This document shows positions 25,257 to 60,546 of a DNA stretch of 64,000 nucleotides, piece after piece. A model generated the notes under the pieces. That model did not search any database and had not been told where the DNA came from. It saw only the letters and a list, made by a program, of their open reading frames with translations. This DNA comes from Chiloscyllium plagiosum (lineage: Eukaryota), in assembly GCF_004010195.1 (NCBI RefSeq), contig NC_057751.1, positions 14,176,812 through 14,240,811 of the forward strand. The letters run 5' to 3'. Made by a program: the position numbers and the translations under genes. Numbering within the stretch: position 1 is the first letter of the stretch; each line of letters begins with the position of its first letter.

Positions 25257-25365
25257 CCCCGTGCAGAACCAATTCCAATCTGTGGGTTTTGCCTGGGAAC
25301 AAAAGAGCAGAACCGTGAGAAGAAACGTGAGGAACTCATTTCATGTGCAGATTGCGGTAATAGCG
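25257..25365 (+). CDS. KAT6A: KAT6A internal coding exon (109 nt), start of PHD finger 1
   Basis: Acceptor tttcttctgtcaacag, donor G|gtacgt. Translates [36 protein letters not shown](G), matching recalled KAT6A PHD1; EQNREKK and [12 protein letters not shown] are KAT6A-type rather than KAT6B-type. Confidence 0.95.
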
Positions 25366-27224
25366 GTACGTACTCTGCTCAACTTTGGCGAACGTTTCAT
25401 TATTTTAACTGAACGCAGTTGCATTTTGACGGAGTGAGCCCAGGTTCATAGTTAAGGGATCATTTGGATCTGAATACTCTGCTTCCAGACCTGTCTAGTT
25501 CTATGCCATAATCAGCTTTATTCATATTAGGAAGCCAGAAAGGTTATGGTGTATGTAATTTCTTTGAGCAACAAATTGACCTGTCTACTGGTGCCAGGAG
25601 TCTTTAGCAGGGATGTCAAATGATCGAGTCAACCATCCTACAACTTGAATTAATAATGGAGTGTCTCACACAACTTAAAAGCGAGCAAAATAAATCATGT
25701 TTTTTTTTATGCCCTGTCTTTATTGGTGGCAATTCACATTCTCATGGGGCCAAAGGAATATTACAGGGAAGAGTTTTGAAATTTAGCTCATCTCTGGGAC
25801 TTGTGGCGTGCTTTGTTTCCCACTGTTTATATGCCACTTGCTTTCCCTTGAATGATTTCTTGTTTTCTCTGACTCCTTTCATTGTTTCTACCTTCACCTC
25901 CACATTCTCTGCCACTGTTGCGTCTCATTGTTCCCACAATTCTGGAAGTTTGATGCCATGAGAAAGTATGTGCAGAAGAACGTAATGAATCACATTTGTA
26001 TTTCTCTCTCCTGTTGATTTCCCTGTCTGTTACTCACCCACCCACCTTCTTTCTAAATCCCTTTGCTGCTTTCTTTATCCCTTCCTCGGTCCATCTTTGT
26101 TTCCTTACTACTTTTCTCATTTGTATCTCTGTTTCATTTGATACATGTTTCATTATCTCGTTCTCCGTCCCTTAGATAATTCTTCACTGAGATTCATGAT
26201 TTCAGCCCCTCTCACCTCACTCTGTTACAGTCTCCCTTTCATTTTCCCCTCTTGTAGCTTCTCTGTCATCCCTTGCCCACTGTCTCCCTGGCTCACAGCT
26301 TCGATGTCTTTCACACCTTAAAACCAGAAAACCTCCCCATGCATTTTAACAAGCAAGTCCCAATTTCATGGACAATTTTGTGCTCCCCATCCCGTGAACT
26401 CTTTCCGATGACTCCTACACCTGCAGGTCACCGCTCTATAACTATAACAAGGCTATCTCCCACTATTTTAACCTGTCTGTAAGTTAAGTGGAGAATATTT
26501 ACTGTTCGCTTTCTTTACATTTTGATCTTGGAAAAGGCAAGTCGAATATTTGATCTGAGTCGAAGTTTAATCGTTATCACAATTAACATTTTAGTTGAAA
26601 TCTAGTCGCAAACACGTAAATCAAAACTTGATATTGCACTCTCTTTGCACTTGGTCTAAGAAAATTCATCTCAGTTATTCTACATCCTTGGCCCTGATAA
26701 GACATGAATTAGTTTAAAACATGTCAACTGATGCACCGAGGAAAGCCTAAGAACATCCACATTCTGTCTTGCATCGAGCAGAAATCTGTCACACTTCACT
26801 TCAGTGGTAAACCAACCATAAAATGTGTAGAACCAGGCCAGTCGTTAACTGCGAAGCATGTACAATCGTCCACTGACCTCAGCAGTTTGCTAGCAGTCAG
26901 GATTATTTGGATTTGTCCATTTTTATTGTTTCAATAAAAGGCAGACTTGAGCAATTCCCTTCAAGGAACAAGCTGCATCAATAGTTGAACATTACAACTC
27001 CACTGTAGGTCTGAGATTAATCCTGAGCTACACAGTGGGAGTTCTACTAGCATTGATGTTAGTATGATTGGGTCTCTTCTAAGTTCGTGTGCAATTCCAC
27101 TTCAAAAATTGAGCCTTACCTTCTCACTTAGCCAATTGTTTTACGAGTTTTCCTCCTGATCTTCATGGTCACATTATGAAACAGCACGTACAGCCCATCC
27201 ATGAAATTCAGATAATTTGTGTGA

Positions 27225-29105
27225 TCTTAGAGTTAGACAGCACAGAATTACATCCTTTGGTCCATGCGTCCGTGCTGACCAAGTTTCCTGAACTGAACGA
27301 ATCCCTTTTGCCTGCATTTGGTCCATTTCCCTTTCTGCTTCATGCACCTGTCCAAATGTCTTTCCAGTGTTGTAACTGGACCTGCATCTATCACTTCCTC
27401 TGGCAGTTCATTCCACATGCAAACGGCACTGAGTGTGAAAATGATGCCCCTTAACCTTTTAAATCTCACTTTTCACCTTAAAAGTATGCCCCCACGTTTT
27501 GAACTCCCCCACCCTATGGGAAAAGACCTTTTAATATTCACTTGATCCATACCCCTCATGATTTTATAAACCTTTATAAGGCCACCCCTCAACCTCCCAT
27601 GCTCCAGAGTAAAAAGTCCCAGCTTAACCAAGCCCTCCAGTCCTGGTAACATACTTGGAAATCCTTTGTGCATCCTCTCCAAATTCATCTTATCCTTCTT
27701 CGAGTAAGGTGACCAGAACTGAACACAGTACTGAAGAAGAGGCCTCACCAACATCCTGTACAACCTCAACAAGACAACCCAACTCCTACACTCAAAGTTT
27801 TGAACAGTGAAGACTAACATATGAAACAGCTTCTTAACCACCCCATTTACATGTCATGCAAATTTCAAAGGATTATATACCTGAACCCTTGCGTCTGTGT
27901 ACGACAACACTCCCCACATCCCTATCATTAGCTGTATAAGTCCTGCTCTTGTTTAATTCACAAATGCAATACCTCGTTTTTATACAAATGAAATTCCATC
28001 TGTCATTCCTCAGCCCATTGGCCAAATTGGTCAAGATCCCTTTTAAATCTTGGAACATAGAACAGTACAGCATAGTACAGGCCCTTCGGCCCTCAGTGTT
28101 GTGCTGGCCTTTAATCCTGCTCTAAGATCAGACTAACCTACACACCCTTCACTGTGCTATCATCCAGGTGCCTATCCAAGATCTGCTTAAATGTCCCTGA
28201 TGTATCTGAGTCTACTACCACTGCTGGCAGTGCATTCCACACACCGACCACTCTCTGTGTAAAAGACCTACCTGTGACATCTCCCCTAAACCTTTGGTGA
28301 CTACATTTCAAAAGTAGTTCAATGGCTGGTGAAGTGCTTGTATGTACTCTATCCGTGAAAGTTATTTTATGAATGGAAGTTACTTCTTTCTTATATTACA
28401 GTAACTCTCCGTAATCTGAGGTTAAGAAGGAAGTATTTGACTAAAAATATTTAGACAGAATCTTTGTCAGCTCTCCAGATATTAATAATTTTTTAAAATC
28501 TCACAGCACCAGGTCACAATCCAACAGGTTCAACCTTCTTCACTGTTGATTATACCGCCAATTTTGGTGTCATCTGCGAACTGCAAAACCCTGCTTCCTA
28601 AATTCTCATCCAAATCATTTATAAAAATTACAAACAAAATTGGACCCACAGTCCTGATTCCAACAGAACACTGCGAGTCTCCAGTCGAAAAAAACAACCC
28701 TCTGCCCTCCTCGACCTTTTTGATTACATCCTAGAAAGATTCTAACCAGGTTTGTGAGAGACACTTTCCGATATACAACGCCGTGCTGCCTATCCCTAAT
28801 CTGGACCTGCCTATCCAAATGCATATAACTTCTATCTCTGAGAATTCCTTCCAACAATTCACCCACCACTGATGTCAGACTCACTGGTCTGTAGTTCCCA
28901 GGCTCCTCCTTACAACCTTTCTGAAGTAAAGGCACAACATTACCCACCCTCCAGGCTCCTGGCACAGATATCTCTATTTGGAGTCCTGCAATTTTTTTCC
29001 CCTACATTTCCACAACTTCCTGGAATACACTTGATGAGGTCCTGGAAATTTCTCCACCTTTATGTTCTGTTTAAGACCTCCAGCACCATCAGCTCTGTAA
29101 GATGA
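27225..29105 (-). mobile_element. Cluster of CR1 LINE fragments on the minus strand
   Basis: Minus-strand ORFs LYRMLVRPLLQYCVQFWSP (27473-27841) and PGNYRPVSLTSVVG (28615-28965); a separate CR1 3' end at about 28052-28292. Confidence 0.88.
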
Positions 29106-29173
29106 CTGGTTTCAAGAACTGCAATGAAGAATATTTAACCTGAGTGACACTTGTGTGGATGCACGATGAATAA

Positions 29174-29647
<474 letters not shown>

Positions 29648-31670
29648 TAGATGTGTGGTGATTGATTGGTTAATGTATTTCCTCAATATTATTTGAGAGA
29701 AGAATACAGGACAGGATATGAGAGGAACCCTCGTTGTACTTGACATTAATTCCATGAGAAGTGTATTATCCATGTGAGAAGGTAGTTCATTTCAATAAGT
29801 GAAAAACAATGTCATTGAGATTACGGTCCCAGACCAGGCTGCCCAATTTGCGTTGCAGTCTGACAAGGGAGCAATAACTTTTTTGTTTTAGGTTGACGAA
29901 GTGAGATATTCCAGGTACTTGATAAGAGAATAAAGTCAGTATTCCAATATTTGGAAAGAACTACACAAAGTTGGAATGGTAATAGAACCTACCATATATA
30001 TTTCTGTGTATTAACTTATTTTTGAACTTCTGAAATTAACCTGAGGTCAACATAGGTAACATGAACTGTGGTTGAATGCCCCACAGAGCATGACACATGT
30101 GGTCAAGACAGATCCCACAGATTTCTAAGTAAACACCACTCCCAACATTAGTAACTACAGATCAATCAATTTAATCAAAATGTTGCATGTGATTCCTGTT
30201 GTTCTGTTCAGCAGATCTAGCTTCAGAATTTCTTCAAACAACACTCTGTCAAGTAATGGCTCAATGACTACTCACTCCCTGGTAGTTCATCTTCCTTTCC
30301 CAGTTCTGTACTCCCCTGGATTCTTAAAAATGCACTCCAGTACTGAGAGGCACAACCATACTTTTTCACAGACAACTAGCTTCACCAAGCCAGGACTGCT
30401 CCTGATCTGTTACTGCACAGAATGATCCAACCACTCTGGGTCTTCTCTTTGCACTCCAACTAGACAGCAGCAGTGTTAATTTTGCGCATCAGTCTCCTTG
30501 GTGGAACTTTGTCAAAAACATCTGAAAACCATACAATCCACATCCACTGGCTCCCCGATCATCTCTTTTTGTTACATTCCCTAAGAATTCCAGTAGATTG
30601 CTCAAACGTGCTTCCCTTTTGTAAATCCATACTGACTGTGTCTGATTCTACCACTGTTTTCAAAGTACTCTACTATAAAATCCTTGATGATAAACCTTTG
30701 CATCTTCACCACTATGGGTAGCTGACTCACACTCGTTATAATTGGTTCAGCGGTTTATTACCAACAAATTTACATTACAAAAGATTGAAACAAAGTAAGC
30801 GTAAAACATTACCTGAGGTAACCACTAAAATTTTAAAGCCAGAATCAACATAGTTTAAACGATGGGTAAACAGCATTATGCAGTGAGTTATAAACTGTGC
30901 ATTATACATTGGCAGCCCACTCAGTGCCGGTCATCAATTTCAGTCACATTTTCAAAATGCTGCATTGCTAATGAAGAATTGTAGCTCCTTTCCAATGGAC
31001 GTAGTATGATGTTCAGGCAACAGCAGCACGCAATCAATCTGAGTTCCACAAAAAAGTCAGGTCAGCAGAATCTGTTGCAAACCTCCCCAACGATGCCCAC
31101 AATGATCTAGCTGGTGTCGCTCCATTAGTGTTACCTTCAAGTTACGGGACCAGTTGCACCAGGTGTATGTTTGCTTATTTTCAGCTTCTGGATCTGAGCT
31201 CCATCTAGAGTCATCGTCTGGGATTTGATGGTTGTGTCTTTTTTTATATAGTTCCAGTCTTCCCAAAGTTTGTGTGCGTAATGAGTTTCAGTCTGAGATC
31301 ATTCCAGTTCCTAAGGAAACTGATTACTTTCTCTCCCTCCCTTTTCACTCAGTTTGTTTTTTTTAAACTGACCCAATAAAACCACAAAGTCCACTGCACT
31401 TGTTTGGCATTAGCCTGTAATTGAGAGGCTGTTTAGTTCTTTTAATGAAAATTAGAACTTGCGTATCATTGCAGAGGAGTGGAGGACAGTGGCATTGCCT
31501 GACAACAGCTAGTTTTGAGATGGATAGTGTATAAGCCTTTGCTGTGAAGAGACTCCAAGGTTTTAGTGAGATTGCAAGTTATTATGTATTCTAACTGGCA
31601 CTGAGCCGTGCTCACCCATCACCCTCAATCCAAATCCGACACTCAGGCTGTCAGTGCCCCAGTCTTTTTA

Positions 31671-31995
31671 AATTACATTACATTTCCTACAGTGCGGAAA
31701 CGGGCCCTTCAGTCCAAAAAGTCCACATCAACCCTCCGAAGAGTAACCCACCTTGGCTCATTTCCCAACATTTACCGCTCTCTAATGCCACCTAACATGA
31801 TGGAAATTTGGCATGGCCAGTTCACCTGACCTGCACATCTTTTGGAATGTGGGAGGAAACCGGAGCATCCGGAAGAAGCCCACGCAGACACGGGGAGAAT
31901 GTGCAATCTCCACACAGACAGTCGCCCAAAGTGGGAATCGAGCCCGGCTCCCTGGTGCTGTGAGACAGCAGTGCTAACCACTGAGCCACCGTGCT
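31671..31995 (-). mobile_element. HE1-like V-SINE, full length
   Basis: Reverse complement of 44572-44890: tRNA head, V-domain ttctccccgtgtctgcgtggg, CR1-like tail. Confidence 0.9.
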
Positions 31996-32519
31996 GATTT
32001 AAAATCTCTTGTCTTGTCTGTGGACCCTTGTGTAGCCTAACCTTTTTCTAAAGAACATGAGTGAATCAGAAGGCTTTTTATGATAGTTGATGACAGTTGT
32101 TATAGTCACCATCATTGAGACAAGGTTACTGTTCAAGATATCCTTCATGGAAAAGTGGCGTAGTGGGATTTTAAGCGATGTCCACAAAGCTGGACACCGA
32201 GACCAGTTGCTCACTGACTGATGTTTTACACCACCATCTCACCCTACGTTGCTCTCATGCCCACATAGTTGTCTTTGGTATGAATTCTGAAAGTTCCTGC
32301 TTGCAAGAAGTTGCCCAAATCCCTTGTCCACTTATTACATGCAAATAACCTGCCTCAGCTTTGCAAAAAGAGCATTTTGGATTCCAAGTCAGTGAAAATT
32401 TGTTTTATTAACCTCACTTTCGATTAGTTGCTTACGATCTTAAAAGTAGGGTTCCCAGCTATTGGCTCACTCACCAGTGAGAACAGTATTTCTCTGGGAA
32501 CTTTGTAGAGCAGAACTAC

Positions 32520-32875
32520 AAGTAAATTCGTGATCTCAATTCATGATCTAGAGTCAGAAGTTCAAATTTCACTATAGCTGCTGCACAATTCAATTCAAAT
32601 TTAATATTTGTAATAACAAGATATTATTGGTGACGGTGGCCATGAAACTACAGGGTTGTCATAAACCCATCTGGTTCATTCCTGACCTCCAAGATAGGAT
32701 ACTCAGTCCGGCATATATTGGACTCCAAACATACAGCAATGTGGATTACTTGAAAGTGCCCTCTGAAGTAGTCTAGCAAATCCGTCAGTTGTTTTTACCT
32801 TCTCAAAAGCAGTGAGGGGTAGTCAGTAAATGCTGGCCTTGTCAGCGATACCCACATTCTGTGAATTAAAAATAA
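32520..32875 (+). mobile_element. tRNA-derived SINE (second family), degenerate
   Basis: Similar to 46105-46475; tail resembles the 3' end of the second LINE family. Confidence 0.65.
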
Positions 32876-33514
32876 AATTGAAAAAACCTTCATTGGTTCA
32901 TCTTTTAACCTTCTCTGTTCAAGATGATTAATCGAACTGTTGCCGAAAACTGAATTTTGTCATCCCCGAGAGCACATACGTTTTGTATCTATCCTTCATT
33001 TGATAGCCAGAATGGTCCACATAACTTCAACTGAGGTTAACCAGAGATTAAGAAAGTTTAAAATTATCACTTTGTTTTTATATTCTGTTCCATTGCGAGT
33101 TAAATGAACATCAGTTTGCTCAGCCTTTGCAAATGAAAGCAAGCTGTTTGTCAAAGACAAATAGTATCGAGTGAACTTCATTGAATTATTTGAAGAGGCC
33201 TGGAGCAGGCTGTTTAAGGTAGTTCCATTAATGTATCTTTGGACTTCAGGAAGAAATTCCATAAATAAGACCATAGACATAGGAGGAACTGTTCAACCCA
33301 TTAAGTCTGCTCTGCCGTTTAGTGAGATCACGGCTGATGAAAAATCCTTAACTCTAAAAGGACTTAGCTCAAGTGTCACCAGCCTTCATTTTCAGCAGCG
33401 GCAGGGGCAAGGACCAGGGGACTGCCAGGAAGGTAAGTTTCCCTGTAAAAGGACTTAGTTGGGTCATCACCAGCCTTCATTTTCCAAGGATTTAGCTTTT
33501 CCAAGTAATGACAG

Positions 33515-34790
33515 ACGGGGTGAGCCTGATGTCAGTGGTAGGGAAGCTGCTGATGAAGATACTGAGGGATAGGATCAGTCAATTCATGTGGATGAAAATG
33601 GTCTTATCAGTGATAGGCAGTATGATTTTATGCAGGGGAGGTCATGTCTTACCAAAATAATAGAATTCTTTGAGGAAGTGACAAGGTTGATTGATGAGGG
33701 AAGGGCTGTAGATGTCGTATACAGGTCATATACATGGACTTCAGTAAGGCATTTGATAAGGTTCCCCATGGTAGACTGATGGAGAAAGTGAAGTTGCATG
33801 TGGTTCCAGGATCTGCTTGCTAGATGGATAGAGAACTGGCTGGGCAACAGGAGACAGTAGTAGTGGAAGGGAGTTTCTCAAAATGGAGACCGGGTGACCA
33901 GTGGTGTTCCACGGGGATCTGTGCTGGGACCACTGTTGTTTGTGATATACATAAATGATCTGGAAAAAGGTATAAGTGGTCTGATTAGCAAGTTTGCACA
34001 TGACATGAAGATTGGTGGAGTAGCAGATAGTGAAGGGGACTTTCCGAGAATGCAGCCAAATATAGATTGGAGACTTTGGGCAGAGAAATGGCAGATGGAG
34101 TTCAATCTGGACAAAGGTGAGGTGATGCATTTGGGAAGATCCAATTCATGAGCGAACAATGCGGTAAATGGAAAAGCCCTGGGGAAAATTGATGTACTGA
34201 GAGACCGAGGTATTCAGGTCCATCGTACCTTGAAGGTTGGAACGCAGGTTGACAAAGTGGTCAAGGAGGCATATGGCATGCTTTCCTTCATCGGATGGGG
34301 TATTGAGTGCAAGAGTTGGCAGGTCATGTTGCAGTTGTATAGGACGTTAATTTGGCCAGATTTGGAATACTGTGTACAGTCCTGGTCACCACATTACCAA
34401 AAGGATATGGGTGCTTTGGAGAGGGAGAGGTTGAAATTAGGATTATTTTCATTAGAAAGTTGGAGGTTGAGGGCGGTCCTGATTGAGGTCCACAAAATCA
34501 TGAGAGGTATAGACAGGGTGGATAGCAAGAAGCTTTTTCCCTGAGTAGGGGACTCTATTACTTGGGGTCAGAAAAGTTTAAGGGAGGTATGCGTGGAAAA
34601 TTCTTTACACAGAGGGTGGGTGCCAGAGACGTGTTGCCAGTGGAGGTGGTAGAGGTGGGCATGATAGTGCCATTTAAGATATATCTAGAAAGATACATGA
34701 ATGGGCAGGGGGCAGAGGGATCAGATCAGTACAAAATAGATGACAGGTTTAGATAGATGATCTGGATCGGCGCAGGCTGTAATTTTCTTT
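33515..34790 (+). mobile_element. CR1 LINE 3' fragment
   Basis: GRSCLTKIIEFFEEVT, TSGVPRGSVLGPLLF, LEYCVQSWSP. Confidence 0.92.
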
Positions 34791-34877
34791 GTTCCGCTTT
34801 ACTGTGTTTTCCTATAATCCTTGATTCCCTTATTACTTATAAAATCTGTCTATCGCAGTCTTGACAATCCTTCATAA

Positions 34878-35581
34878 TGTTATGAAGATGTGTGTTTACC
34901 TTTGAGAGTTAAAAGCAGCAGAACTACCGGACACAGCACCAAGTGCTTTCAATAAGGCAGCAATGTAACACTGAGTCGAACAACTCGATTAGTTCATTAC
35001 GTGGAGAGAAAAACAAATTCGAATTCAGCCAATCATTTTAAAATTATACCCTGAAAATATACCAATTTCCAATCAAGTTTGAGTTGAGTATGTTGACAAT
35101 CTTAAAAGCCAGTGACACAATTGGATGCTGCGGTGTATAAAACCAGGGGAAAAGTGAACAGTTGAGAGGAGAACTGCATCGTCCTAGCATGTAACAGACT
35201 GCTTGATAAAAATCTCTCTCTTAAAAGTACCTTTTTAATCAGTAACCTGTCACGCAGAAGTTCCTAATAAGGAGAAAAGAAGGCACAGGAAGATCCAAAG
35301 ACAAGAACCTACAGCTGCCTGGTTTTGAGATAAGTGTTGTTTTGTAAATCTTACTTGGGAGTTTTATCAGACTAGTGTTATTGAAGGGAAGGTAAAAGAT
35401 AGGTTAGAGTAAGGACTTGTACATAGTTGTTAGCTAATTATTCTCTGTTATACTTTAAGAAATAAAGTTGTTAATTTTTACTACTTGGCCACTCGAATTT
35501 TTACAGATTACTGTACGGGATAAATCTTTACTGAGTTGCTAGTTTAAAATTAAGCAAGAGAGTTTACTCCGTGTCGTAACA
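34878..35581 (+). repeat. Left LTR (704 bp)
   Basis: Begins tgttatga, ends tgtcgtaaca; TATAAAA at 35136-35142, AATAAA at 35461-35466; followed by PBS. Confidence 0.93.
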
Positions 35582-35584
35582 GTT

Positions 35585-35604
35585 TGGGGGCTCGGGTCTG
35601 TGAT
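35585..35604 (+). promoter_or_regulatory. Primer binding site, tRNA-Pro type (degenerate)
   Basis: tgggggctcg-gg-tctgtgat, 3 nt after the LTR; the tRNA-Pro PBS is TGGGGGCTCGTCCGGGAT. Confidence 0.85.
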
Positions 35605-35763
35605 TTGAACTGTTCAGACAAACTTGAATAGATTTGGGGTATGAAAAATTCCAGCAGATTTAAACACTTGCAGGTTAGTGTTCGAGATCTTCAAATAAAA
35701 CACAGGTGAGACAATTTGTTTAATTTTGGTGACTTGTGGTTGATTAAATTAAAAGTGAGGGAA

Positions 35764-36900
35764 ATGGCTCTTAAAATTGCAGAAGAGGTTCTGGGATTTG
35801 AAGATGATTATCAAATTTGCCAAGAAAGTTTAGAAGGAAAGAAAAAGACCATATTTTTAGAAATGGACAAGTGCAGTAGAGGTAGAACAACTGAAATGAC
35901 AATTGAGGAAAATGGAGTTAGAAGGTAAACTTAGAGGGAGAGAGAAAGGGAAAGAGAGAAAAGAAAGACAGAGAGAGGAAAAAGAGAGGGAAGGTTCTTG
36001 ACTGACCAGAGAGAGAGAGAGAGAGAGAATGTGAACTTGAGAAGTTGCGACTTTGTCAAGCAAAGTCAAGTTAACAGGATGGAGATTAAAAGAGAAGATA
36101 GTGATACCTGTAAATATGTCAAAACACAGGCACATTTTGATGAGGAAGATGTTGAAGTTTTCTTTATTTCACTTGAAAAATTGCCGAGGCCAATGGAGTG
36201 GTCCAAGGATTTATAGGTAATGTTATTTCAGACTAAATTGGTAGGCAGAGCTAGTGAGGTATTTACTGCGCTGTCAGATGAGGGTTCAAGAGATTATGAA
36301 GAGGTTAAACAAGCTATTTTAAGTGCTTATGAATTGGTACCAGAAGCATATAGACAGTGGTTCAGAAACACAAAGAAGGAATCAGGTCAGACTTATGTTG
36401 AGTTCGAAAGAATTAAACATGGTCATTTTGATCAGTGCGTGTGTACTTTGAAAATCGATAGGACATTTGAGGCTCTCGGAGAGATTATTCTGCTGGAGGT
36501 GTTTAAAAACTCACTTCCAGAGATGGTAAGAATTCACATGGAGGAACTGAAAGTTCAGAAGTGAGAAGGGCATCAGAATTAGCAGATGAGGACGTGCTGG
36601 TGCATAAGACAAGCTTCTGGCCAGAATTTCGTCCTCTGAAGATTAGAAGGGCAGATCCTACACTACTAAACCAAGAATCGAGCACACTGGTAAGATGTCA
36701 CCACAGGTTAAAGGAGCCCAAGACAGTGGACAGGAGGTGAAAGGCCTCAGGTGTTTTCACTACATTGGAGTGGGACACAGAAAATTACAGTGCTGGTGGT
36801 TCAAGAAGAGCACTGGGAAAAGGTGTCTTCACTGCCAGAAGGTGGGACACGTGAAGACACACGTTGCTGGTCTTTAAAGAAAGGCATTGTGGGAAAAGAC
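35764..36900 (+). pseudogene. gag remnant with SCAN-like capsid domain and two zinc knuckles
   Basis: YEEVKQAILSAYELVPEAYRQWFR...EIILLEVFKNSLPEMVRIH (ORF 36220-36564); CFHYIGVGHRKLQC and CLHCQKVGHVKTH (ORF 36695-36877). Confidence 0.85.
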
Positions 36901-37084
36901 TTGGTAAAAGAAGCGACGCCGGTGGCATTAGTGAAGGTAGTAAAGGCGACCCTAGGAAGAGCTGAGGATCTGCAGGAGAGTGCACAGCTTAAGCAGAGTC
37001 TGGGAAGGGAGTTAGTCCCTGATCTTCAAAAAATTTGCCTCCGTGGGTAAATTTTACTCAAACAACAGGGGGAGAAGGGCAAGA

Positions 37085-39017
37085 AGTTATAATTTTCAGA
37101 GATGCAGGATCGAACTACTTGCTGTGATAGGAAGGGATGAGTGAATATTCACAATTTCTAATCTGTTATCTGAGAGTGTGGTAATTTGTGGGACAGATGG
37201 ATAGAAATTTAGCGTTACCCGATGTAAGGTCAGGTTGGAGTGCCAACTTGAGGCTGGGGAAATTACAGTGGGAGTGATTGACTGAGTTTCAATTCCAGGA
37301 TTTAGTAAGATCCAAGATGGGAGTGACACCCCCTTTTGTGGAGAAGCCCAAGGAAAACCAAGAAACTGAGGAGTTAAAACAGAAATATCCTGACATTTTC
37401 CCAGACTGTGTCGTAACCAGATCCCACTATCGTAAGTCACAGCATGAAGTGAAAACTAAAGAGGAAGATGAAGGGGTTGAGGTTCAATTAGCGGATACCC
37501 TGTTTGACGTAATGGTGCAGGAAAAACCTGAACAGACAGAGGTGTTTAGTCCTGAAAGGGTAAGAGACTCGCAACAGTAAGACAAGATGATAAAAGATAT
37601 ATATATATGTGTGGATGTGTACTCTGAAAAGGAGGCAGAGAATATTCTGGAGGGTTGTTATCTGAAAGGTAGAATCCTCAGACAGGAATGGAGACCACGG
37701 CAGGTTAGTGCAGAGGAGAAATGGGCCGAAGTGCACTAGATTGTATTGCTGGTAGTGTCCAGACAGGAAGTGTTGCAGGTACCACATGAACTACCTGGAG
37801 GAGGTCACTGAGAGGTACGAAAGATTCTGGCAAAAGTACAAAAACATTTCTATTGGCCTGGAATGCTCAAGGATGTGTTTAACTTGTGCCGGATGTGTCA
37901 TACATGCAAAATGGGAGGTAAGCCACAGGCAGTAATAAAACCAGCACGTTTGTTGCCAATTCCCATATTTGAAGAACCTTTCACGTGGGTTATAATTGAT
38001 TGTGTAGGTCCCCTCCCAAGAATTAAAAGTGGGAACCAGTACTTGTTAACCATCATGGATGTGTCTACCAGATTTCCCATGGCAATTCCATTATGCAGTA
38101 TCAAGGCAAATAAGGTGGTAGAGGAGTTGGTAGCCTTCTTCACACAGTATGGGCTACTCAGATTCAGTCGGACCAAGGGTGAAATTTTCCTGCTAGGCTG
38201 TTTAAGGAAATTATGGATAGCTTCGGTGTAAAGCACTTTTCATCCTGAATCCCAGGGAGCTTTGGAAAGGTGGCATCAGACCTTGAAGACCATGTTAAGA
38301 GCATACTGTCAGGATTACTCGAATGATTGGGATAAAGGTATCCCATTCGTATTGTTTGCCATTAGAGATGCCCCAAATGAATCTACTCAGTTCACTCCTT
38401 TTGAGTTCATAATTGGTCATGAAATGAGAGGCTGTGTGAAATTAATTAAAGAAACTTTGACAGGATCAAAGTCGGAGATCTTACAATTAGATTATGTGTC
38501 GAAGGTGAAGGAGAGATTAACTCGAGGAGGTGAGTTAGCTAAACAGCACCTAAAAAGGGCACAGTGGAAAATGAAGCAGGTGGCAGATAAAAACTCTGAG
38601 GCTCGGTCGTTTCCCCAAAGGGATAACGTGTTCGTACTGTTACCAATGATAGGAGATCCCTTCAAAGCTAAGTTTAGTGGTCCATATCAAATTGAGAAAA
38701 AGTTGTGTCAGGTGAAGTATTTGGTAAAGATGCCAGAGGAGTGGGATGGATTAGTAAGCTATCTGTCTCAGGAGCATAGAACAGAGTTGAAAGGTTTATT
38801 ACTACAGTATAAGGACATATGTAAGAATCAGGTGGGGAGGACTAATACTATTGTACGTGAAGCAGGCATAGGGAATACTACTCCGATAAAACAATATTCC
38901 TATTGGCTTAATCCTCTCAAAGCCAGACAGGTCCAGGTGGAGGTGGAGGTCATGCTTGACGAGAACATCATGAAACCAAACCAGAACCAATGGAGTTTGT
39001 CAATCGTCTTAGTTCCC
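37085..39017 (+). pseudogene. pol remnant: aspartic protease, integrase (zinc finger, DDE core, GPY motif), then the first residues of RT
   Basis: IIFRDAGS near 37089-37112; FYWPG..CRMCHTC, IIDCVGPLP, LTIMDVSTRFP, HPESQGALERWHQTLK, FSGPYQI; then PIKQYSYWLNP...MLDENIM...WSLSIVLVP, where it breaks off. Confidence 0.9.
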
Positions 39018-39035
39018 ATCCTGGACGAGCCCTCA
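39018..39035 (-). promoter_or_regulatory. Second tRNA-Pro PBS attached to the inverted LTR
   Basis: Reverse complement tgagggctcgtccaggat matches TGGGGGCTCGTCCGGGAT at 16/18, with the same gtt spacer as the left copy. Confidence 0.88.
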
Positions 39036-39038
39036 AAC

Positions 39039-39750
39039 TGTTATGACATTGAGTAAACTCTCCTGCTTAATTTTAAATCAGCTGCACAGAAAAGATTTTT
39101 CCCATGCAGTAATCTGTAGAAATTTGAGTGGCCAAGAAATATATAAAGGAAAAACTAACAACTTTATTTCTTAAAGTATAACAGAAAATAATTAGCTAGC
39201 AACTATGTACAAGTCCTTACTCTAACCTATCTTTTATCTTCCCTCCTATAACACTAGTCTGATAAAACTCCCAATTAAGATTTACCAAACAACACTTCTT
39301 ATCTCAAACCCGGGCAGCTGTAGGTTCTTGTCTTTGGATCTTCCTATATCATCTTTTCTCCTTGTTACGAATTTCTGCATGACAGGTTACTGATCAAAAA
39401 GGTACTTTTAAGAGAGAGATTTTTATCAAGCAGTCTGTTACCTGCTAGGACGATGCAGTTCTCCTCTCAACTGTTCTATTTTCTCCTGGTCTTATACCTC
39501 AGAGCATCCAATTATGTCATTGGCTTTTAAGATTGTCAGTATACTCAATTCAAACATGATTGAAAATTGGTATCTTTTCAGGGTATAATTTTAAACTGAT
39601 TGGCCAAATTCAAATTTGTTTTTGTCTCCAGGCAAAAAACTAATCGAGTTCGACCTGGTGTTACATTGTTGCCTTATTGAGAGCACTTGGTGCTGTGTCT
39701 GGTAGTTCTGCTTTTAACTCTCTTAAAGGTAAACACACATCCTCATAACA
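39039..39750 (-). repeat. Right LTR (712 bp), inverted relative to the left LTR
   Basis: Reverse complement reads tgttatgaggatgtgtgtttaccttt...tgtcataaca, colinear with 34878-35581; by eye roughly 85-90% identical. Confidence 0.93.
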
Positions 39751-41225
39751 ATAACGAGGCCTCAACAACCTTCTGTGATAACGAATTCCTCAGATTTTCT
39801 GTCCTCTGAGAGAATTCCTTCTCGTCGCTGTCTTAAATTTGTGACTCCTTGTTCTGAGATTTTGCCCTTTGGTCCTGGACTACCCTCCAAGGGGGAGCCA
39901 TCTTTCCAAATATCAAGTCCTTTAAGAGCTTTGAATGTTTCAATAAGGTTGCTTCTAATTCTTCCAAACTCCACCAAGTGGCAATCCCAATCTATTCAAC
40001 TGTTCCTCAAGACAGTACTCATAACTAGTCTCAACTGAGTGAAACATTCTCTGGACTGTTTCCAATACCAGTACATCTTTTCTTAGGTGAGGGGTCTGTT
40101 GATCCTAGCCCAGCTGTGGTTTGATGATTGCCTTGTATAGCTTTAGTAAGACTTCCCTAATAGTTTAATTAAGACCTCGCTACATTTATATTCCATTTCC
40201 TTTCGAATTAAAGGCCAGTGCTCCAGTTGTCCATTACCTGCTGAACCTGGATGCTAGCTCACTGTGATTCACAGAGGAGGACTCCCAAATCCTTCTGTTC
40301 CAAAGTTTCTGCAGTCTTTCTCACCAAAGCACACACCCTCACATTATATTCCATCCATCACGTTTTTGCCCATTCACTGAATCAGTCTGTACCCTAGTGC
40401 AGCCTGTTTGCCATTGTTACCACTTGCCTTCCCGTCTTTCTCATGTCATCCACAAACTTGTTTATTAGACATTGTCTTCCCTCTTTCAAGTCATTGATTT
40501 TTTTTGTTGTTCCATGTGGCCCCAGAGCAGATTCTTACGGCACTCCCTCGTGACAGATTGTCATCCTGAAAATACCCACTTTAGCCCAACTCTTTGTTTT
40601 GTCTTGATAGCTCATTCTCGATCCGTGCTGATATACAACTCATACACCCGGGACTCTTACTTTTTTATTAAGTAGCCTAATGTGTATTAACTTGGCAAAA
40701 TGAAGTACCCCTCAGGAACGTTTTACAGTGGCAGCCTTTGGAAGTGACAGTGTTAGTTTGTTTTGAAAACACTCTTGTGAAGTGCATTGTGATGTATTAT
40801 CGTACTAAAATGCTTCATAACTTCACATTGTCATTTTTGAGAAACAAGAACTTGCGTTAAGCCTTTAATGTTGTAAGCCATTTGAAATGAATTGAAATAC
40901 ACCAAGGTTTTGGACTGGCGTGAATCGCATTCAAGAGTGCAGAGTTGTGGTAATTGTGGGAACTAGTTCTTGATTGATAGCTATGAGACAGTTGTATATC
41001 TTACTAATTGCTCCTTATGAAAAGCTCTGTTTTACGTGCTGTTGACATGATTACTTGGTGGTTGCAAAATGGACTTTGGCTCAGGCTGCTGTAAAATTTT
41101 CATAAGCTGACAATTGGCAACTGAATTGAATGTTAAACCTAAGTGGACCAGCCAAATAGCACAGAGGACATGGGTCATTGGTCCCTCTTTACTTGGCCAA
41201 TTTTGGGAGGCAGTATGTAGATGGT

Positions 41226-41445
41226 TGAAACTTTATTGCTGGAACAGCACAGCAGGTCAGGCAGCATCCAGGGAACAGGAGATTCGACGTTTCGGGCACA
41301 GGCCCTTCTTCAGCCTGTGATGTATTCGGCCTGTGCCCGAAACGTCGAATCTCCTGTTCCCTGGATGCTGCCTGACCTGCTGTGCTGTTTCAGCAATAAA
41401 GTTTCAACTTTGATCTCCAGCATCTGCAGACCTCACTTTCTCCTC
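41226..41445. mobile_element. Short palindromic Penelope-like insertion with 15-bp TSD
   Basis: Arms 41224-41304 / 41328-41408 with one mismatch; cagtatgtagatggt at 41211-41225 and 41446-41460. Confidence 0.88.
41286..41313 (-). ncRNA. Minimal hammerhead ribozyme core
   Basis: Minus strand CTGAAGA-A-GGGC(ctgt)GCCC-GAAA-CG-TC. Confidence 0.65.
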
Positions 41446-41606
41446 CAGTATGTAGATGGTGCCTAGTGAAACTGTTGGAGATGGGCTGCCTCCATTGAGA
41501 AGGGTGGATGTCGCACGTAGTACAGTTGGACCTCTGTGGCTGAAAAAAGCCAATGTTTTGCAAAATGCTATATATTTACAAGTGGCAAAATCATAAAGAT
41601 GAATAA

Positions 41607-41807
<201 letters not shown>

Positions 41808-43419
41808 TAATCATGGGCCAAGTTTTTCCAGCAATTCTCTGCAGCTGTTCTTTCCTTAAAATCATTTTCTGCAAAAACATATTTTGGTGAATGTAAGGTA
41901 ATGATTCACTGTTCACAAACTGCTCAAATAATGATATTGTTGACAACTGAAAAAAGTGTTGAGAAAGGAAAAATGTTTCCCATCATTCCGGCTCATACAG
42001 AACCCATTTTAAGTATTTCTTAAACAAGTTAAACATTGCATTGAAAACAGAGTGAAACTTGACGTAGTTGACAAGAACAAAGAAAGCAATGTTTGAGAGG
42101 AATTTAAGACAGAACACATTCATGAACAGGCAGGGGATGTAGGGATATGTGCAGGAAGATGGGATGAATTGAAAATGGTCTTGTGGTCAGTACTGTCATG
42201 GCAGACTGAAGGCCTTGTACCTGTACTGTACTGTTCTGTGTTCGACGAAATTGCATGTTTTCGGCTATGGCTATGAAACCATAGTAATCCAGAAATCGGA
42301 ACGAATCATCTGAGGATGTGTTCAAATTCCATAATGGTGGCTTGGAAATGTTTTGTTTGTTGCACAAGTCCTCTGGCTCATGAGTGTTCTTTGGGGAAGT
42401 AAATTAGTCTTGCATCTGGTTCTGGACCACAGGTGGACTACTTCAGTTGACTTTTCAAAATAGTATAGCAAATCGTTTAGTTGAATTCAAGAAAGTAAAT
42501 CAGCACCACTTTCTCCAGTACAATTAGGGATGGGAGTAAATGTTCACCTTGCCAGTGAAATGCACATACCCTGAATAAATTGCAAAAATTCTGTCAAGGA
42601 GTTCTGATTGAATTTGGGAATGTGGTCTTAGATACATTGTACTTTTGGTCGCACTTCTTTTCAGTCCTCCTGAAATTTAATTTGGTTAGTATGAGATGCC
42701 AGTAACTTTTGCTTTTCATGTGACGCTTGAGAAATGGGGTGCAACGTTTAGATTTCTTAGAGTTCATGATGGTAGTTTTTTTTTACCAAACTCTCTGATG
42801 TAAAACCTATGGGATCAAGTAGATTGGTCGTGCACCTCATCATCTCCTTGTACCAATAGACAAGTGAGACCAGAAGACCATTTGCAAGTTAGATGAAAGA
42901 GAACTCTCCTGCGTCACGACAAAGTCAATCGACAATGTGACAATTGTAGACTTTTTCACCAATCAGCAGTATGGAGCACAGTGATTACTGGGAGCTGGCA
43001 CAAGAAGACAAAAATGGGTGTCCAAAAAGGTTTTAACAAGCTGGATCCGATTTAGCCTCTCTGTTCTGACAGGAATTTAATCACCAGGGAGCATGTTGAC
43101 AGACTGAGACAAAAGAAGTAAATGAGAAACACAAAAGTGACTGATTTAACAGAGGTTGGGTGAGAATGTGGAGCAGATTACCAGCGGGGATGGTGGAACA
43201 AGAATCAGTGGCTTCAGGCTGGGAATCGACACCCTGCCATGTCAGTGCTGACCATGATACCATTATGAATTAATACCCCATGGTCCATGTCCCTCTACTC
43301 CCTGCCTGTACATGTGTCTGTCTAAATCCTTCATAAGCATTGCTTTGTTCTTGCTAGCAATGTAAAGCTTCACTCTGCTGAGGATAATGTCAGGGATTCA
43401 GGGCCATACTTTTCCTGTC

Positions 43420-44400
43420 GATATTACTCTGTCATTAGTAGAATCCCGGACAAAACAACTGATTTGATTGACACTTCATCCAGCAACATGATCACTTGCT
43501 CCCTCCCCCCGTCACCAATGCACAGAGGCAGCAGTGTGCTGCATCATCAAGATGCTCTGTAGCAATTCATCAAAACTTCTTCAACTCTAGATTTCAAATC
43601 CATGACTTGTATCCCCTAAAATGACTAAGGCAGCAAATACATTCGACCACCTAACCCTGCAGCGTTCTCACCAAACCACACACTATCCTGATGTAGAAAC
43701 ATGTTGCAGATCAAAATCCTGGGCCTCCTTTTCTGCTTGCATTGTTGAAGGAATGTGGTTAGATTCTCTCTCATGGGAGATGGTCATTTCCTGGTACTTG
43801 TGTGGTGTGAATGTTAAGTTGTCACTTGTCATCCCAAGCCTGGATATCATCCAGGTCTTGTTGCATTTGGATGTAGGCTGTTTAAGAATCTGAGAACTCA
43901 TGAATTATGCGAACCGCTGAGCAATTGTTAACCAGCATCTCCACGTCTGATCTGCGGATGGAGCCAAGGTAATGGATGAAGTAGTTGAACATGTTTGGAC
44001 CTACGACACTACACTGAGGAACTGTAGCAGTGATGTTGTGGAATCCCCAGCAACCACTTGTATCTTTCTTTGTAGTATGACAGCAACAAGAGTTTTTCCT
44101 GTGATGACAGTCGATTCCACTTGTGCTCAAATTCCTTGATAATACACTCTCTGGGATTTACTGCAAGGGCCACCATGAAGCTGTCAAGGATCACTGGAGT
44201 TCACTCTTCAGTCCATGTTTGTGTCGATATCCAATATCTTCATCCATTTCTTAATGTCACATGGAGTAAATCAAATCAGTTGATGACTGGAATCTGTGGT
44301 GCCAGAGACTTCAAGAAGAGACCAAGGTGGATCCTCCACTCTGTATTTCTGACTGAAGATTTTCATTTGAAATCAAGATGGTTAGTGACTGAAAACAGAC
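43420..44400. mobile_element. Degenerate fragments of the second LINE family in both orientations
   Basis: 43440-43750 resembles 20840-21150; 43760-44090 is reverse complementary to 20310-20570. Confidence 0.6.
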
Positions 44401-44571
44401 TAGAGAATGCATTCTAGCTCTGTTTCTGTGTGATCCAAAGTCACATAGTGACATCACCTTGAATTGAATGCCAGGGATCAATGACACGTGTCAGCAAGAA
44501 AAATGAAGCTTTTGGAACAACCGTCCTGCAAAAGAAAGCTGCTCTTAAGATTGTACCTCATCTAGTTTTGT

Positions 44572-44890
44572 GGGCGGCACGGTGCCACAGTGGTTAGCAC
44601 TACTGCCTCTCAGCGCCAGAGACCTGGGTTCAATTCCCACCTCAGGCGACTGTCCGTGTGGAGTTTGCACATTCTCCCCGTGTCTGCATGGGATTCCTCC
44701 GGGTGCTCCGGTTTCCTCCCACAGTCCAAAGATGTGCAGGTCAGGTGAATTGGCCATGCTAAATTGCCCATAGTGTTAGGTGAAGGGGTAAATGTAGGAG
44801 TATGGGTCTGAGTGGTATACGCTTCTGCGGGTCGGTGTGGACCTGTTGGGCCGAAGGGCCTGTTTCCACACTGTAAGTAATCCAATCTAA
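44572..44890 (+). mobile_element. HE1-like V-SINE, full length
   Basis: gggcggcacggtg..cagtggttagcac A-box, ggttcaattccc B-box, V-domain, tail gggccgaagggcctgtttccacactgt(aatct)n; possible TSD atctagttt. Confidence 0.92.
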
Positions 44891-45188
44891 TCTAGTTTGA
44901 GTTGTATGATTCTGTGACTCAAGGGCTTATTTTTTGAGGAGCAGTTGAGTACTCTCTGTACGTGATGGAGTTTAGTAGGATTGGTGGTGGGGGGGAGATC
45001 TTGTCGAAACTTCTGGAATACTGAGAGGCCGAGGAATACAATGCATGGTAGAAGAATGTAAGGAGTCATTTTATAGACTAAACAGGCAGTTAATTTTGTT
45101 AGCTTTAAACATGAATTTCTTTGGTTGACACAACACAAACTTCCAACCGGACAGATATTCATTATTTTGTTTATTGCTTCCATCACAG

Positions 45189-45321
45189 GCATGTGGGTGT
45201 GTCAGATTTGTCGGCCACGGAAGAAGGGAAGAAAACTGTTACACAAGAAAGCGGTACAGATTAAACGGCGCTACGCAACAGCAATAGGGCATTCGAAAAA
45301 TAGATTAAAGAATAAGACAGT
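45189..45321 (+). CDS. KAT6A: KAT6A internal coding exon (133 nt), PHD2 end and basic region
   Basis: Acceptor ttccatcacag, donor GT|gtaagt. (G)[43 protein letters not shown](V). Confidence 0.95.
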
Positions 45322-54051: not shown

Positions 54052-54368
54052 ATCAAAAGGTTCTCAGCCGTTTGACAAGGAGAGGCAAGGTCCTGGTCGG
54101 GGTCGTAAGCGCAAAATCTCAGCAGTCCCTTCGAAGCCGGGACGATTGGATGGACTGAGCTCCTTGAATTCGCGAACCACCAAATCCTCCCGCCTGAAAA
54201 TGAACAAGAAAACCAAAGGGCTCATTGATGGCCTTAGCAAATTCTTCACCCCTTCGCCCGATGGCCGCAAGCCACGGGGTGAACTCCTGGACTTAGCTGA
54301 GCAATACAGGCTTAAACGAAAGGGCCCACGAAAATCAAGCACTTCTGACAACAGCACATGGCCCACAG
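54052..54368 (+). CDS. KAT6A: KAT6A internal coding exon, short form (317 nt)
   Basis: Acceptor ttgtctccttccacag, proximal donor CAG|gtactg. SKG...[10 protein letters not shown]...[23 protein letters not shown]...[12 protein letters not shown]; joining to 60428 gives WPT-DNQD as in recalled KAT6A. Confidence 0.92.
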
Positions 54369-54911
54369 GTACTGCACTGACCTCATTAACCCCTGCATGC
54401 CCAGTATCACCTGACATGTCTGTACCAGCACGAAGGTGCCATTTAAGCAGCATCAAATCATCTCCCTGTACTAGCCGTTTTGATAACGTCAGTAAGCAGG
54501 CATTCACTGGCCATTTAAATGTATGCAGAATGCCCAGGTTAAGAAAGGAGCCAACTGACATTGCTTCCTCTCTGTATACTCCCAAACCCTCTGATGAAGC
54601 AGACACTGAATTAACTCCTCCTTGTCTTACACCTTGTGAACCTTGCCCTACTTCCATTGATAAATCTGCTCTCCCAAGCGATTGGGACAGTAGCAAGAAA
54701 AACAATTCCACTTTGCAAATCTCACCATACCTACGACTGAGTACATCCGTAGACACGGCTGCTAAACTGCACTCTCATTATTTCCTGCCATTTTCTGTGA
54801 GAGAGAAAGCAATAAGGGGCAGCCGGTGTAAAATGAGACATGGAAAGACGATCCTTTGGCACGGGAAAGGGAACGTGGAATTAGGAAGGAATAAAAGTGC
54901 CGAGGACAAGG
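54369..54911 (+). CDS. KAT6A: Putative alternative in-frame extension of the preceding KAT6A exon (543 nt, 181 aa, Ser/Pro/Thr-rich) via a distal 5' splice site
   Basis: Frame stays open past the proximal donor to AAGG|gtaaga (GT at 54912-54913), same phase 1 as the proximal donor; the first stop comes just after it (54920-54922). Confidence 0.7.
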
Positions 54912-57776
54912 GTAAGAAGTAAATGCCATGCCATCATGCATCGCTAGCACTAGAAGTTGGCTTTTTATTGCGCTTTTTTTGGGATGCTTCAGTCAGTTGC
55001 TGTTGACTTTTGGGAGGGAGGGTTGGACTTATGCCATGAAAGTAGCTCTGCACATTCTCATTTCGTGAAAAAGCACAGTAGGTCCAGTAGAATCTCAAAA
55101 GCGAAAAGGCAGATTGATATTTTTGGTAGAGACGTTTATTCACAATATTTTACTTGTCAAATGCTCAAATGTAATCTGCTCTTTATTTTCTATTTTCCTG
55201 ACTTAATTCCAAATCTCTCATCTTCATGTAATGATTAAAGTTAATGAATTGGCCAGAATATGGATGTCTTGGAAAAGAGGTGGAATTGCAACCCAGAGCG
55301 GCTGACTTGCATTGCTTTTCTCCGGCTAGATTGGAAATAAGCGGCGGCACACAAATGTTGCAAGTGAACAAGTGCAGTGTCACCGCTGTTGGGCATATCT
55401 TTCATGGCATGAGAGGAACATCCATTTGAAATGGAAAATATTCCTCAAGGTCGAGTTGGCTGAGAAAATCTTGTCACGTGCAGATTGATACGGCCAGATC
55501 ACTTGCAGAGTATTTTCCTAATTGTGTAGAATTGCATCGTGTTGCCTGTTGCTTTTTATTATTCAAAGCATTTCCACTCACTAGGATTTGTAGGGCTAGA
55601 ATAAAGCTGGAACTCTTTATTGTGTTAGAGACACACAAGCGCTCTTGTAACTTAAAGATGAGAAATTGGACCTTCTGATGTTCACTCTGCTATTCACTCA
55701 GCTCATGACCAGTCTCCTGCCTCATCTCTATCTTTTCTGTACTTACATCAATGTAATTTTATCCATTTCATTTTCTAAAGTTCCAATCTCTGATTTGAAC
55801 ATACACAGTGACCAAATGTCAACAGCTCTCAAGGATAGATCTCTCTTTTCCCCTCTTCACTACCCACATCCTCCTCTTCTCCCTTTTGTGAAAAAAAAAC
55901 TCCTTTTCATAATAGAATCTTCTGCCAAACTCCTTTTTCTGAAAAAAAACAATGTTAGTGAGATTTCCCCTCTCCTCTGAACTCGCAGGAATGTAGATTT
56001 ATTCTGAAAATGAAAATATTGGAACTCCCTTCCTACCTGCATGAAGCAGTGTTGAACCCATTAGGCCAACACTGAGCGCATGGCAGTTGTAACTTCGCTC
56101 CGACCCTAAGCAATTGCAGCAAGATTTCTTTCCTTGTATAAGCTAGGCACTTAGCAAGAAAGGTTCATGTCGTATTTACTTAGCAAATTGCTTGCTGTGT
56201 CTCCAGACGATTTTTCTTGAATTCATATACAAGGACACCTAGATGTCTCTAAGTACCAGCATTGATTTCCCAATCTGTCAACAGTATTCTGCGTTTCTAT
56301 TTTTTTTCTCTATCAAAGTGGCGAACTTCAGATTTCTTCAAGTTAGATGCCAGCTGCCACAATCTTGCCCATTGACTTTCATTGACCTGAATTCCTCTAC
56401 AGGTTCTTTTGCGTTCTCCTCAAGCTTGCTTTCCCACTGAAATTTGTATCGTCTGCCATCTTCAGAAGGTTACTCTGTCTCCTCTACTAAGTCTTGTTGT
56501 CACCACTAACTAGCTGAGGCTGAAGTGTTGATGCTTATGGCAGCCTGTCAATCCCAATATGACCCAGTTATTCTGGCTGTTGTTTTCTGTCCATTAGCTA
56601 CTCCTCAATCCATGATTAATATTATACTTGTAAATCTGATTGACCCAAATACCACCATGTACCACCTTGTTGAAGAGTTATTCAAAGTCCTACTTTATGA
56701 CTCTAGATTCATTCTATTCCCATTTACTGTTAATTCCTACCCATTTTGTAATGCTCATCCTCAAGAGGCATGTTCCATCCTTGATTTGAGGCACTGATGT
56801 AGAAAACCATCTTGATTGCATTCTGTGATCAGCACGTCCATACTCTCGTTGGAAATGTTGTTTGGCGGAATTATTCAAGTCTGACAGAGTGTGTTTATCC
56901 TTGCGACAGATACCTGTGACTTTCTGACCATTACCTTGCTCAACACTGCAACAGTTGTTTTGGGGCCCACAATTATTTATTGCCTTTTAGTGATTTCTCC
57001 TGCTATCCCAATTCATTGTACTACTTGATTTTCTGAACTAAGTTTCTTTCTGTTGACGATCTTTATCCTATTTATGTCCATTTAGCACGTCTTTTAAAAA
57101 TCCAATGACCTGAAGTATTTAATGCTTGTTCTTGGTCATTCAGCACCCATATTTCTGTGATGGTTGATGGATCAAATCAATTTGTTTTTCTCTATGCTAT
57201 TCATCTGTTTTGGAAGCTTTTGTGCCCATGAATGTAATGCCTTAACTAGCATTTATTTCTGTTTTTCCATGGTGCCATCCTAGTCATGAGCACCCCTGTT
57301 TCTTTCCTCATCTTTTCGTCCACATGTAACGCATTTTGTGTACCTTTACCCAAATAGCTGTCTTATTGTTCTTATGCTGTTGGAATTACCCACAAGCCCA
57401 TTCAATACTTTCAAGTCCTAGTTCATTTGTTGCCAGGATACGAATCCCAGCTGGGTTAAGAAAGTCTTTCACAACAGAACAGCTCCCTTTTTCTTGCCTA
57501 CTGATGTCATTACCCCCAAATCAAAGTCCCTGCCTACCACACCATTTCTTCAGCGTTACATTTAACCTTGTCATCTGGTTGACCAAATGTCCGTTCTCAC
57601 ATGGATCAGAGATTATTGCCATCATGTTTCTGAATGTTAATCTTAGCCCTGGCTCTTCAACTTGTTCAGGAGAATCTCCTCCTTAGCCTTTTATTCTTAA
57701 TTTCTCAACGGATTGCAATAACTGGATCATTGGACTTGTCAAAGTTACACTCCAGCCGTGCGAGATGTACTTAAGT

Positions 57777-58369
57777 TTAGATTAGAGTGGTGCTGGAAAA
57801 GCACAGCAGTTCAGACAGCATCCGAGGAGCAGTAAAATCGACGTTTCGGGCAAAAGTCCTTCATCAGGAATACGGGCAGAGTGCCTGAAGGGTGGAAGAT
57901 ACATGAGAGGAGGGTAGGGGTGGGGAAAAAGTAGCATAGAGTACAATAGGTGAGTGGGGGAGGGGATGAAGGTGTTAGGTCAGGGGGGACGGTGGAGTGG
58001 TTAGGTGGAAAAGGAAGATAGGCAGGTAGGACAAGTCATGGAGCTGGAAGGCTGGAGCTGGGGTGAGGTTGGGGAAGGGGAAATGAGGAAACTATTGAAG
58101 TCCACATTCATGCCCTGGGGTTGAAGTGTTCCGAGGCGGAAGATGAGGCGTTCTTCCTCCAGGCGTCGGGTGGTGAGGGAGCGGCGGTGAAGGAGGCCCA
58201 GGACCTCTATGTCCTTGGCTGAGTGGGAGGGGGAGTTGGAATGTTGGGCCACGGGGCGGTGTGGTTGATTGGTGTGGGTGTCCCGGAGATGTCCCCTAAA
58301 GCGCTCTGCTAGGAGGCATCCAGTCTCCCCAATATAGAGGAGACCGCATCGGGAGCAATGGATGCAATA
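57777..58369 (-). mobile_element. Penelope-like element 3' fragment: GIY-YIG endonuclease plus pLTR
   Basis: YCIHCSRCGLLYIGETG..LAERFRGH...PVAQH...RRLEEERLIFRLGTLQPQGMN (ORF 58001-58411); hammerhead core on the minus strand at 57840-57867. Confidence 0.9.
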
Positions 58370-60427: not shown

Positions 60428-60546
60428 ACAATCAGGACTCGTGGAGCTGCAAACGTGAAATTGAGGATGACCAATCGCTGAACAAGGACATTGTGACTGA
60501 GAAAGACTTGGACCTTTTTCAACACGTTCAGGAGCTTGCATTGGAG
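60428..60546 (+). CDS. KAT6A: KAT6A internal coding exon (119 nt), linker before the MYST domain
   Basis: Acceptor tttttctaaatctgcag, donor GAG|gtaaga. (D)NQDSWSCKREIEDDQSLNKDIVTEKDLDLFQHVQELALE. Confidence 0.92.

Follow-up and report, generated by a model that had tools for sequence, protein, structure and literature searches.

An exon with two splice donors in a shark KAT6A gene and its likely relation to the long-isoform segment of KAT6B

An exon of the KAT6A gene of the bamboo shark Chiloscyllium plagiosum has two 5' splice donors, both of them used, that are separated by 181 in-frame codons, and these codons are by sequence comparison homologous to the segment that distinguishes long isoforms of KAT6B. 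The stretch of DNA that we analysed, hereafter the window, comprises 64,000 nt (contig NC_057751.1, positions 14,176,812 to 14,240,811). We think that the extension is probably an ancestral and largely vestigial minor isoform, whose donor pair was inherited from the single KAT6 gene that preceded the KAT6A/KAT6B duplication and which is decaying in shark KAT6A. The features of the locus are as follows (window coordinates; a slash marks the splice boundary).

25254..45313, + strand: four upstream KAT6A exons (about 25254-25367, 29213-29329, 41631-41726 and 45188-45313; borders approximate) which cover the double PHD finger and the beginning of the linker, found by tblastn with axolotl KAT6A (P0014) at 76-95% identity.
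54052..54368, + strand: constitutive portion of the KAT6A exon, located after the double PHD finger and before the MYST domain, with the acceptor CCACAG/A at 54052 and the frame taken from the sequence.
54369..54374, + strand: proximal 5' splice donor CAG/GTACTG of the major form, intron from 54369; GT..AG joint to 60428 in a contig of depth 51.9 (run X1).
54369..54911, + strand: alternative in-frame exon extension of 543 nt (181 codons), stop-free, in a 602-nt contig with 0 mismatches that is spliced to 60428.
54792..54911, + strand: last 120 nt of the extension, where similarity to KAT6B is best kept and runs without gaps to the donor (identity at 65/120 nt overall and at 32/48 nt next to the donor).
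54912..54917, + strand: distal 5' splice donor AGG/GTAAGA of the minor form, intron from 54912; GT..AG joint to 60428 in a contig of depth 8.12 (run X1).
60428..60546, + strand: next exon, with an acceptor (CTGCAG/A) common to both donors, from the sequence, the joints and a 2475-nt contig that begins there.

An earlier note on this DNA had described 181 stop-free codons running from the proximal donor to a G/GTAAGA donor of the same phase, with a stop just beyond it, and all of these coordinates hold. The extension has no in-frame stop (there are 12 and 16 in the two alternative frames), and an in-frame TAA lies at 54920-54922, just past the distal donor. Both donors are in phase 1 and each joins 60428 in frame, which the note had also claimed and which the two joints of run X1 bear out. 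Scored with a rough donor matrix, the distal donor is the highest-scoring GT between 54053 and 55300 (8.7 bits versus 4.7 for the proximal one). On the + strand, no open frame in the window exceeds the resulting one of 301 codons. A chance open frame was rejected, both because only 2 of 20,000 base shuffles of the extension were stop-free and because the transcripts carry the joints. The dual-donor observation is confirmed. The constitutive part of the exon carries a conserved 13-letter protein motif, and its 82 compared residues are identical to those of the KAT6A-like database protein P0178.

The transcript evidence comes from four public runs (X1, X4, X11 and X22), none of which is listed as RNA on its record, and the joints were found in one of the four. 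Run X1 has both GT..AG joints to 60428, in one contig each, and the long joint, in a contig without mismatch, amounts to about 14% by a literal reading of depth, contig depth being a poor measure of level. The 54912 donor, whose disuse had been named beforehand as counting against the exon, is thus used and joined to 60428. This run has no depth in unique bins of the intron, which matches the expectation for spliced RNA, its RNA type being a guess. In run X4 the intron is covered too and no joint is seen, X11 has nothing on the exon, and X22 has an exon depth of at most 0.5 (about one or two reads) and no joint. Coverage of the extension by itself was rejected as proof of expression, because X4 also covers the intron and has no joint. 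Roughly, then, the long form is a minor branch in X1, the one informative run. The same intron contains a very high-copy repeat (window 57774-58370), in which contig and read depth is thousands of times that of the flanks, and a minus-strand frame of this repeat resembles what we take to be a Penelope-type endonuclease.

In a tree of the MYST domain (17 proteins, midpoint root, without an outgroup), the database protein that matches the window groups with KAT6A, and KAT6A and KAT6B are split at 100/100. The Pfam families PHD, zf-MYST and MOZ_SAS are found on P0178, which matches the window exon; the PHD exons are found upstream within the window, and the exons for the MYST domain and the C-terminus of KAT6A within the 70 kb that follow it. 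Judged from these data, the gene is the shark orthologue of KAT6A (MOZ). A search of the shark's own genome with the exon gave two matches only, this KAT6A and a KAT6B locus (L002) on another contig (the contig pair C42/C38), so that no retrocopy was found in the assembly; a retrocopy as the origin of the splice joints was rejected, since a third genomic match is absent.

KAT6B (MORF/MYST4) produces the isoforms MORF along with MORF-alpha and MORF-beta from alternative 5' donors in the equivalent exon, as shark KAT6A does. The acceptor (TTCCACAG/ATC), the donor phase and the donor position are equal in shark KAT6A and in L002. The distance from the FFTPS motif to the start of the MYST domain is 100 (short form) or 281 (long form) in shark KAT6A and 100 or 277-284 in KAT6B; the extension itself has 181 aa in shark KAT6A versus 177-184 aa in KAT6B, and the isoform pairs of KAT6B differ by 183 aa in the ostrich and 182 aa in a caecilian. 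The available text of PMC2190771 describes three KAT6B variants, their function uncharacterised as of 2007, with variants 292 and 109 aa shorter than the longest form; 292 minus 109 is 183.

The ungapped identities between L002 and the end of the extension (65 within the final 120 nt and 32 within the final 48) give a score that was reached in 0 of 20,000 shuffles. This donor-anchored DNA score is 32.0; the best codon shuffles, with 20,000 in each of two sets, scored 17.0 and 18.2, and the best of 198 slid registers scored 6.4. The global DNA comparison gives a z of 6.8 (4.1 without the last 50 nt), and BLASTN of the end of the extension against L002 aligns 55 nt at 74.5% identity (pairwise E 7e-4). 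In protein, the summed global score against five KAT6B pieces has a z of 4.4-4.8 (0 of 400 shuffles as high), single pairwise tests against the window being non-significant for two of the five teleost or shark pieces, and the last 16 residues match KAT6B of the same genome with a p of 0.0002. BLASTP against KAT6B found no match inside the extension, HMMER scores of the extension against KAT6B were below 0, and HHalign gave a probability of 0.6%, with 11 of 150 shuffles as high; the best HHalign alignment is that of the last 40 residues, exactly in register. The earlier note had made its case depend on a significant alignment to the KAT6B extension: one is obtained when the comparison is global or donor-anchored, and the unanchored protein searches miss it.

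These comparisons indicate that the extension is homologous to the segment of the long KAT6B isoform, common descent being the plain reading. By parsimony, from jawed-vertebrate sequences, its origin likely predates the KAT6A/KAT6B duplication; among the matches listed, none was from a single-KAT6 outgroup or a jawless vertebrate. The proposal of the earlier note that the dual-donor exon predates the duplication and survives in KAT6A is supported through this homology, with its age given by parsimony; it does not imply that a KAT6B function was kept, the residues being near neutral.

The extension is present in predicted KAT6A or KAT6A-like proteins of five carpet sharks: Chiloscyllium plagiosum (P0178, in which 181 of 181 residues are identical to the window), C. 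punctatum, Hemiscyllium ocellatum, Rhincodon typus and Stegostoma tigrinum, whose record starts inside it. For three of these, C. punctatum, H. ocellatum and S. tigrinum, a short form is on record too. Among these carpet-shark records are the predicted proteins named KAT6A-like isoform X1/X2 (XP_043537474.1, identical at 181/181, XP_072410284.1, XP_060712673.1, XP_060712677.1, XP_020386712.1 and XP_048378701.1), which are automated models that carry no comment on KAT6B homology, on loss in bony vertebrates or on selection. Since these predicted carpet-shark isoforms already contain it, the exon is not new. A 180-aa version that ends at the same donor, with 59% identity, is found in the Logan protein P0003, which we take, by its sequence alone, to come from a more distant cartilaginous fish. 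When the orthologues were checked for stops and frameshifts, as the earlier note had suggested, the frame was open in the five carpet sharks and in P0003, and the extension has 180-181 aa in all six shark-type sequences in which it is complete or nearly complete.

Human KAT6A (P0091) is without the extension, as had been claimed. The comparison covered 81 non-shark KAT6A-type proteins of at least 1200 aa, 75 of them measurable, a set that includes human, coelacanth, sturgeon and eel, leaves out gar, bichir, lungfish, rays and chimaera, and samples bony vertebrates mainly through tetrapods and teleost-type frames. The linker is short in 73 of the 75, the other two have unrelated inserts, and the extension occurs in none (0/75). 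When genomic frames are read through the proximal donor, all 39 non-shark KAT6A-type frames end within 94 codons of it (36 of them within 40), many of these being near-duplicates and some possibly cut short; four of the six KAT6B-type frames run for about 186-208 codons. Two candidates were rejected. The 177-aa insert at the same junction of bushbaby KAT6A (P0087) is an unrelated tandem repeat that a second bushbaby record lacks, and this gene model is probably an artefact there; the extra residues of sturgeon P0012 lie after the next exon. A search for homologues of the extension among proteins of 318-2000 aa gave none, and since it missed P0178 and P0176, which are in this range as cluster members, this blank does not speak for absence. 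In the Atlas no usable match turned up, and in a metagenome scan 0 of 202 pattern matches were confirmed.

The residues of the extension are less well kept than those of the constitutive part of the exon. Between the window and P0003, 105 of 179 residues of the extension are identical (59%) versus 72 of 82 in the constitutive part (88%; Fisher p 2e-6). The intron past the distal donor, translated along the read-through of P0003 for 42 codons, has 24 of 42 identical (57%) and two stops in the window, and it does not differ from the extension (Fisher p 0.86); this near-neutral reading relies on one distant protein and on a short intron control that is itself possibly constrained. Compared with neutral simulations, the substitutions are not clearly more conservative (170 of 1500 simulations as high for P0003, 999 of 1500 for the whale shark). 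The last 40 codons match KAT6B at 25, 17 and 23 of the first, second and third codon positions, versus 27, 33 and 18 in the constitutive block, which has a coding pattern. The frame, on the other hand, is preserved: in neutral two-lineage simulations at the divergence of P0003, both lineages remained stop-free in 11-25 of 1500 cases (about 1%, with indels uncounted), and the three gaps between the extension and P0003 are all of whole residues. This test of frame retention is biased, since P0003 could be found only as an open frame. The KAT6B extension has 61-68% identity between chimaera and seven tetrapod records and keeps its motifs, whereas that of shark KAT6A, with 59% between two shark-type sequences, has lost them. 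The picture suggested by these data is one of selection on the frame and the donor and of little selection on the residues. The near-neutral behaviour of the residues appears to be new and would argue against a strong function.

If the extension is indeed an ancestral isoform in decay, the two donors would compete, the spliceosome mostly picking the proximal and sometimes the distal one, and this would yield a short transcript as the major product and a long one as the minor product. The latter would lengthen the linker between the PHD reader and the MYST catalytic domain by a segment of 181 aa that is predicted to be disordered. Since a fraction of the transcripts includes the extension, stops or frameshifts would do away with these transcripts or cut the enzyme short ahead of its catalytic domain, so that the frame would be selected to stay open while most residues drift. 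KAT6B would have retained the segment under selection on the protein, including a second copy of an L-x-D-G-L-S motif, and in bony vertebrates the KAT6A extension would have vanished altogether.

It is possible, although we think it rather unlikely, that the extension has the same ancient origin and that the long isoform does have a function in sharks, serving as a disordered spacer or as an insert under regulation that tunes the coupling between the PHD reader and the MYST acetyltransferase and in which length, charge and disorder count and the exact residues do not. The length is constant among the six shark-type sequences and close to that of KAT6B, both ends are well kept, and the strong distal donor was retained. 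The identity of the extension with the whale shark (92%) is above that of an acidic stretch of the same protein (80%, residues 1201-1300). Residues 96-286, a range that takes in the whole extension, have a predicted pLDDT below 50, which is weak evidence of disorder as it comes from a single-sequence model. No Pfam family was found on the exon, and solved structures gave only chance matches (E 0.18 and 0.32). In MORF, according to the available part of PMC6797804, the PHD fingers are coupled to the MYST domain, and the paired fingers, on binding histones, promote acetylation of H3K23. Against such a function are the equality between the identities of the extension and of the intron control, the neutral look of the substitutions, the erosion of the KAT6B motifs in shark KAT6A, the minor share of the long form in the single informative run, and the fact that KAT6A of bony vertebrates manages without the extension.

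We regard as improbable the idea that what is conserved is an RNA element around the distal donor that regulates splicing or transcript level, the open frame being a by-product. This would account for a similarity to KAT6B that is stronger in DNA than in protein and independent of codon positions, and for the alignment of 126 nt of intron past the distal donor to P0003 with the frame unchanged. A TGCATG hexamer is also cited in its favour; the probability of meeting one by chance in 543 nt is about one in eight. Substitution rates are slow in sharks and could yield the same picture, and the frame is open beyond neutral expectation. Considered by itself, the intron alignment (window 54912-55037) could reflect slow drift or a conserved splicing element. 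The hexamer (window 54394), which lies 25 nt into the extension and which we take by its consensus to be an RBFOX-type site, may be a chance occurrence.

An independent rise of the extension in shark KAT6A, or its copying from KAT6B by an ancient exchange between paralogues, is very improbable: the lack of similarity in unanchored protein searches, the presence of the extension in shark-type KAT6A only and a comparison made without an outgroup would be in keeping with it, but an independent origin fails to explain the ungapped identities that end at the donor together with the equal length and phase, and exchange would take one more event, involving genes that lie on separate contigs (C42 and C38), the low similarity of the two extensions ruling out a recent one.

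The long segment of KAT6B contains a second copy of the L-x-D-G-L-S motif of the constitutive part (11 of 27 identical, pairwise E 0.011), which is kept from chimaera to teleosts and birds (L002; KAT6B records P0114-P0121 and P0028-P0032) and which no Pfam family or solved structure covers. This second copy and the basic block before the donor are eroded in shark KAT6A, where in-register remnants are left (K..D..S.YT and GKG....GR.K); since only remnants of the motifs persist, the homology is one of descent and need not mean that the two segments work alike. In L002 the site that matches the proximal donor (position 1499, minus strand) reads CAA/GTTTTG and scores -1.9, and the same-phase donors are at 1793 (6.8), 1592 (7.1) and 968 (8.9). 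The bamboo shark KAT6B may have lost or moved the matching short form. L002 also has a third donor further upstream (CTG/GTAGGG), whose counterpart in shark KAT6A scores low. A more speculative reading, which we hold to be unlikely, is that the splice repertoire of the ancestral KAT6 was parted in opposite ways in sharks, KAT6A keeping a low-level long form that loses its motifs and KAT6B losing the short form, and that L-x-D-G-L-S is a binding motif, hitherto unrecognised, whose number of copies depends on splicing and makes KAT6A and KAT6B truly differ in function in bony vertebrates.

Within the literature covered, which excludes most subscription journals, we found no publication that deals with a long isoform of shark KAT6A or with its relation to KAT6B, and the available parts of PMC12678635, PMC9454415, PMC1949830, PMC10297931 and PMC11786378 contain nothing on this exon. 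The exon is already in automated gene models; its evolutionary reading, which is of a familiar kind, appears to be unpublished. The loss or partition of splice isoforms between paralogues after gene duplication is a general concept. Here, likewise, an ancestral alternative segment stays under selection in one paralogue and is lost from the other, with the difference that shark KAT6A is a visible intermediate, spliced and in frame while its residues drift. Both KAT6A and KAT6B count as disease genes and as drug targets, according to the accessible part of PMC12678635, and the long segment of KAT6B has no described function in the papers covered. The shark exon would be a clean case of a splice isoform midway through its loss, one that opens no new mechanism. 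If our reading is true, the long segment of KAT6B is ancestral, lost from KAT6A instead of gained by KAT6B, and the shark copy marks the residues that decayed under relaxed selection, which would point to the duplicated L-x-D-G-L-S motif.
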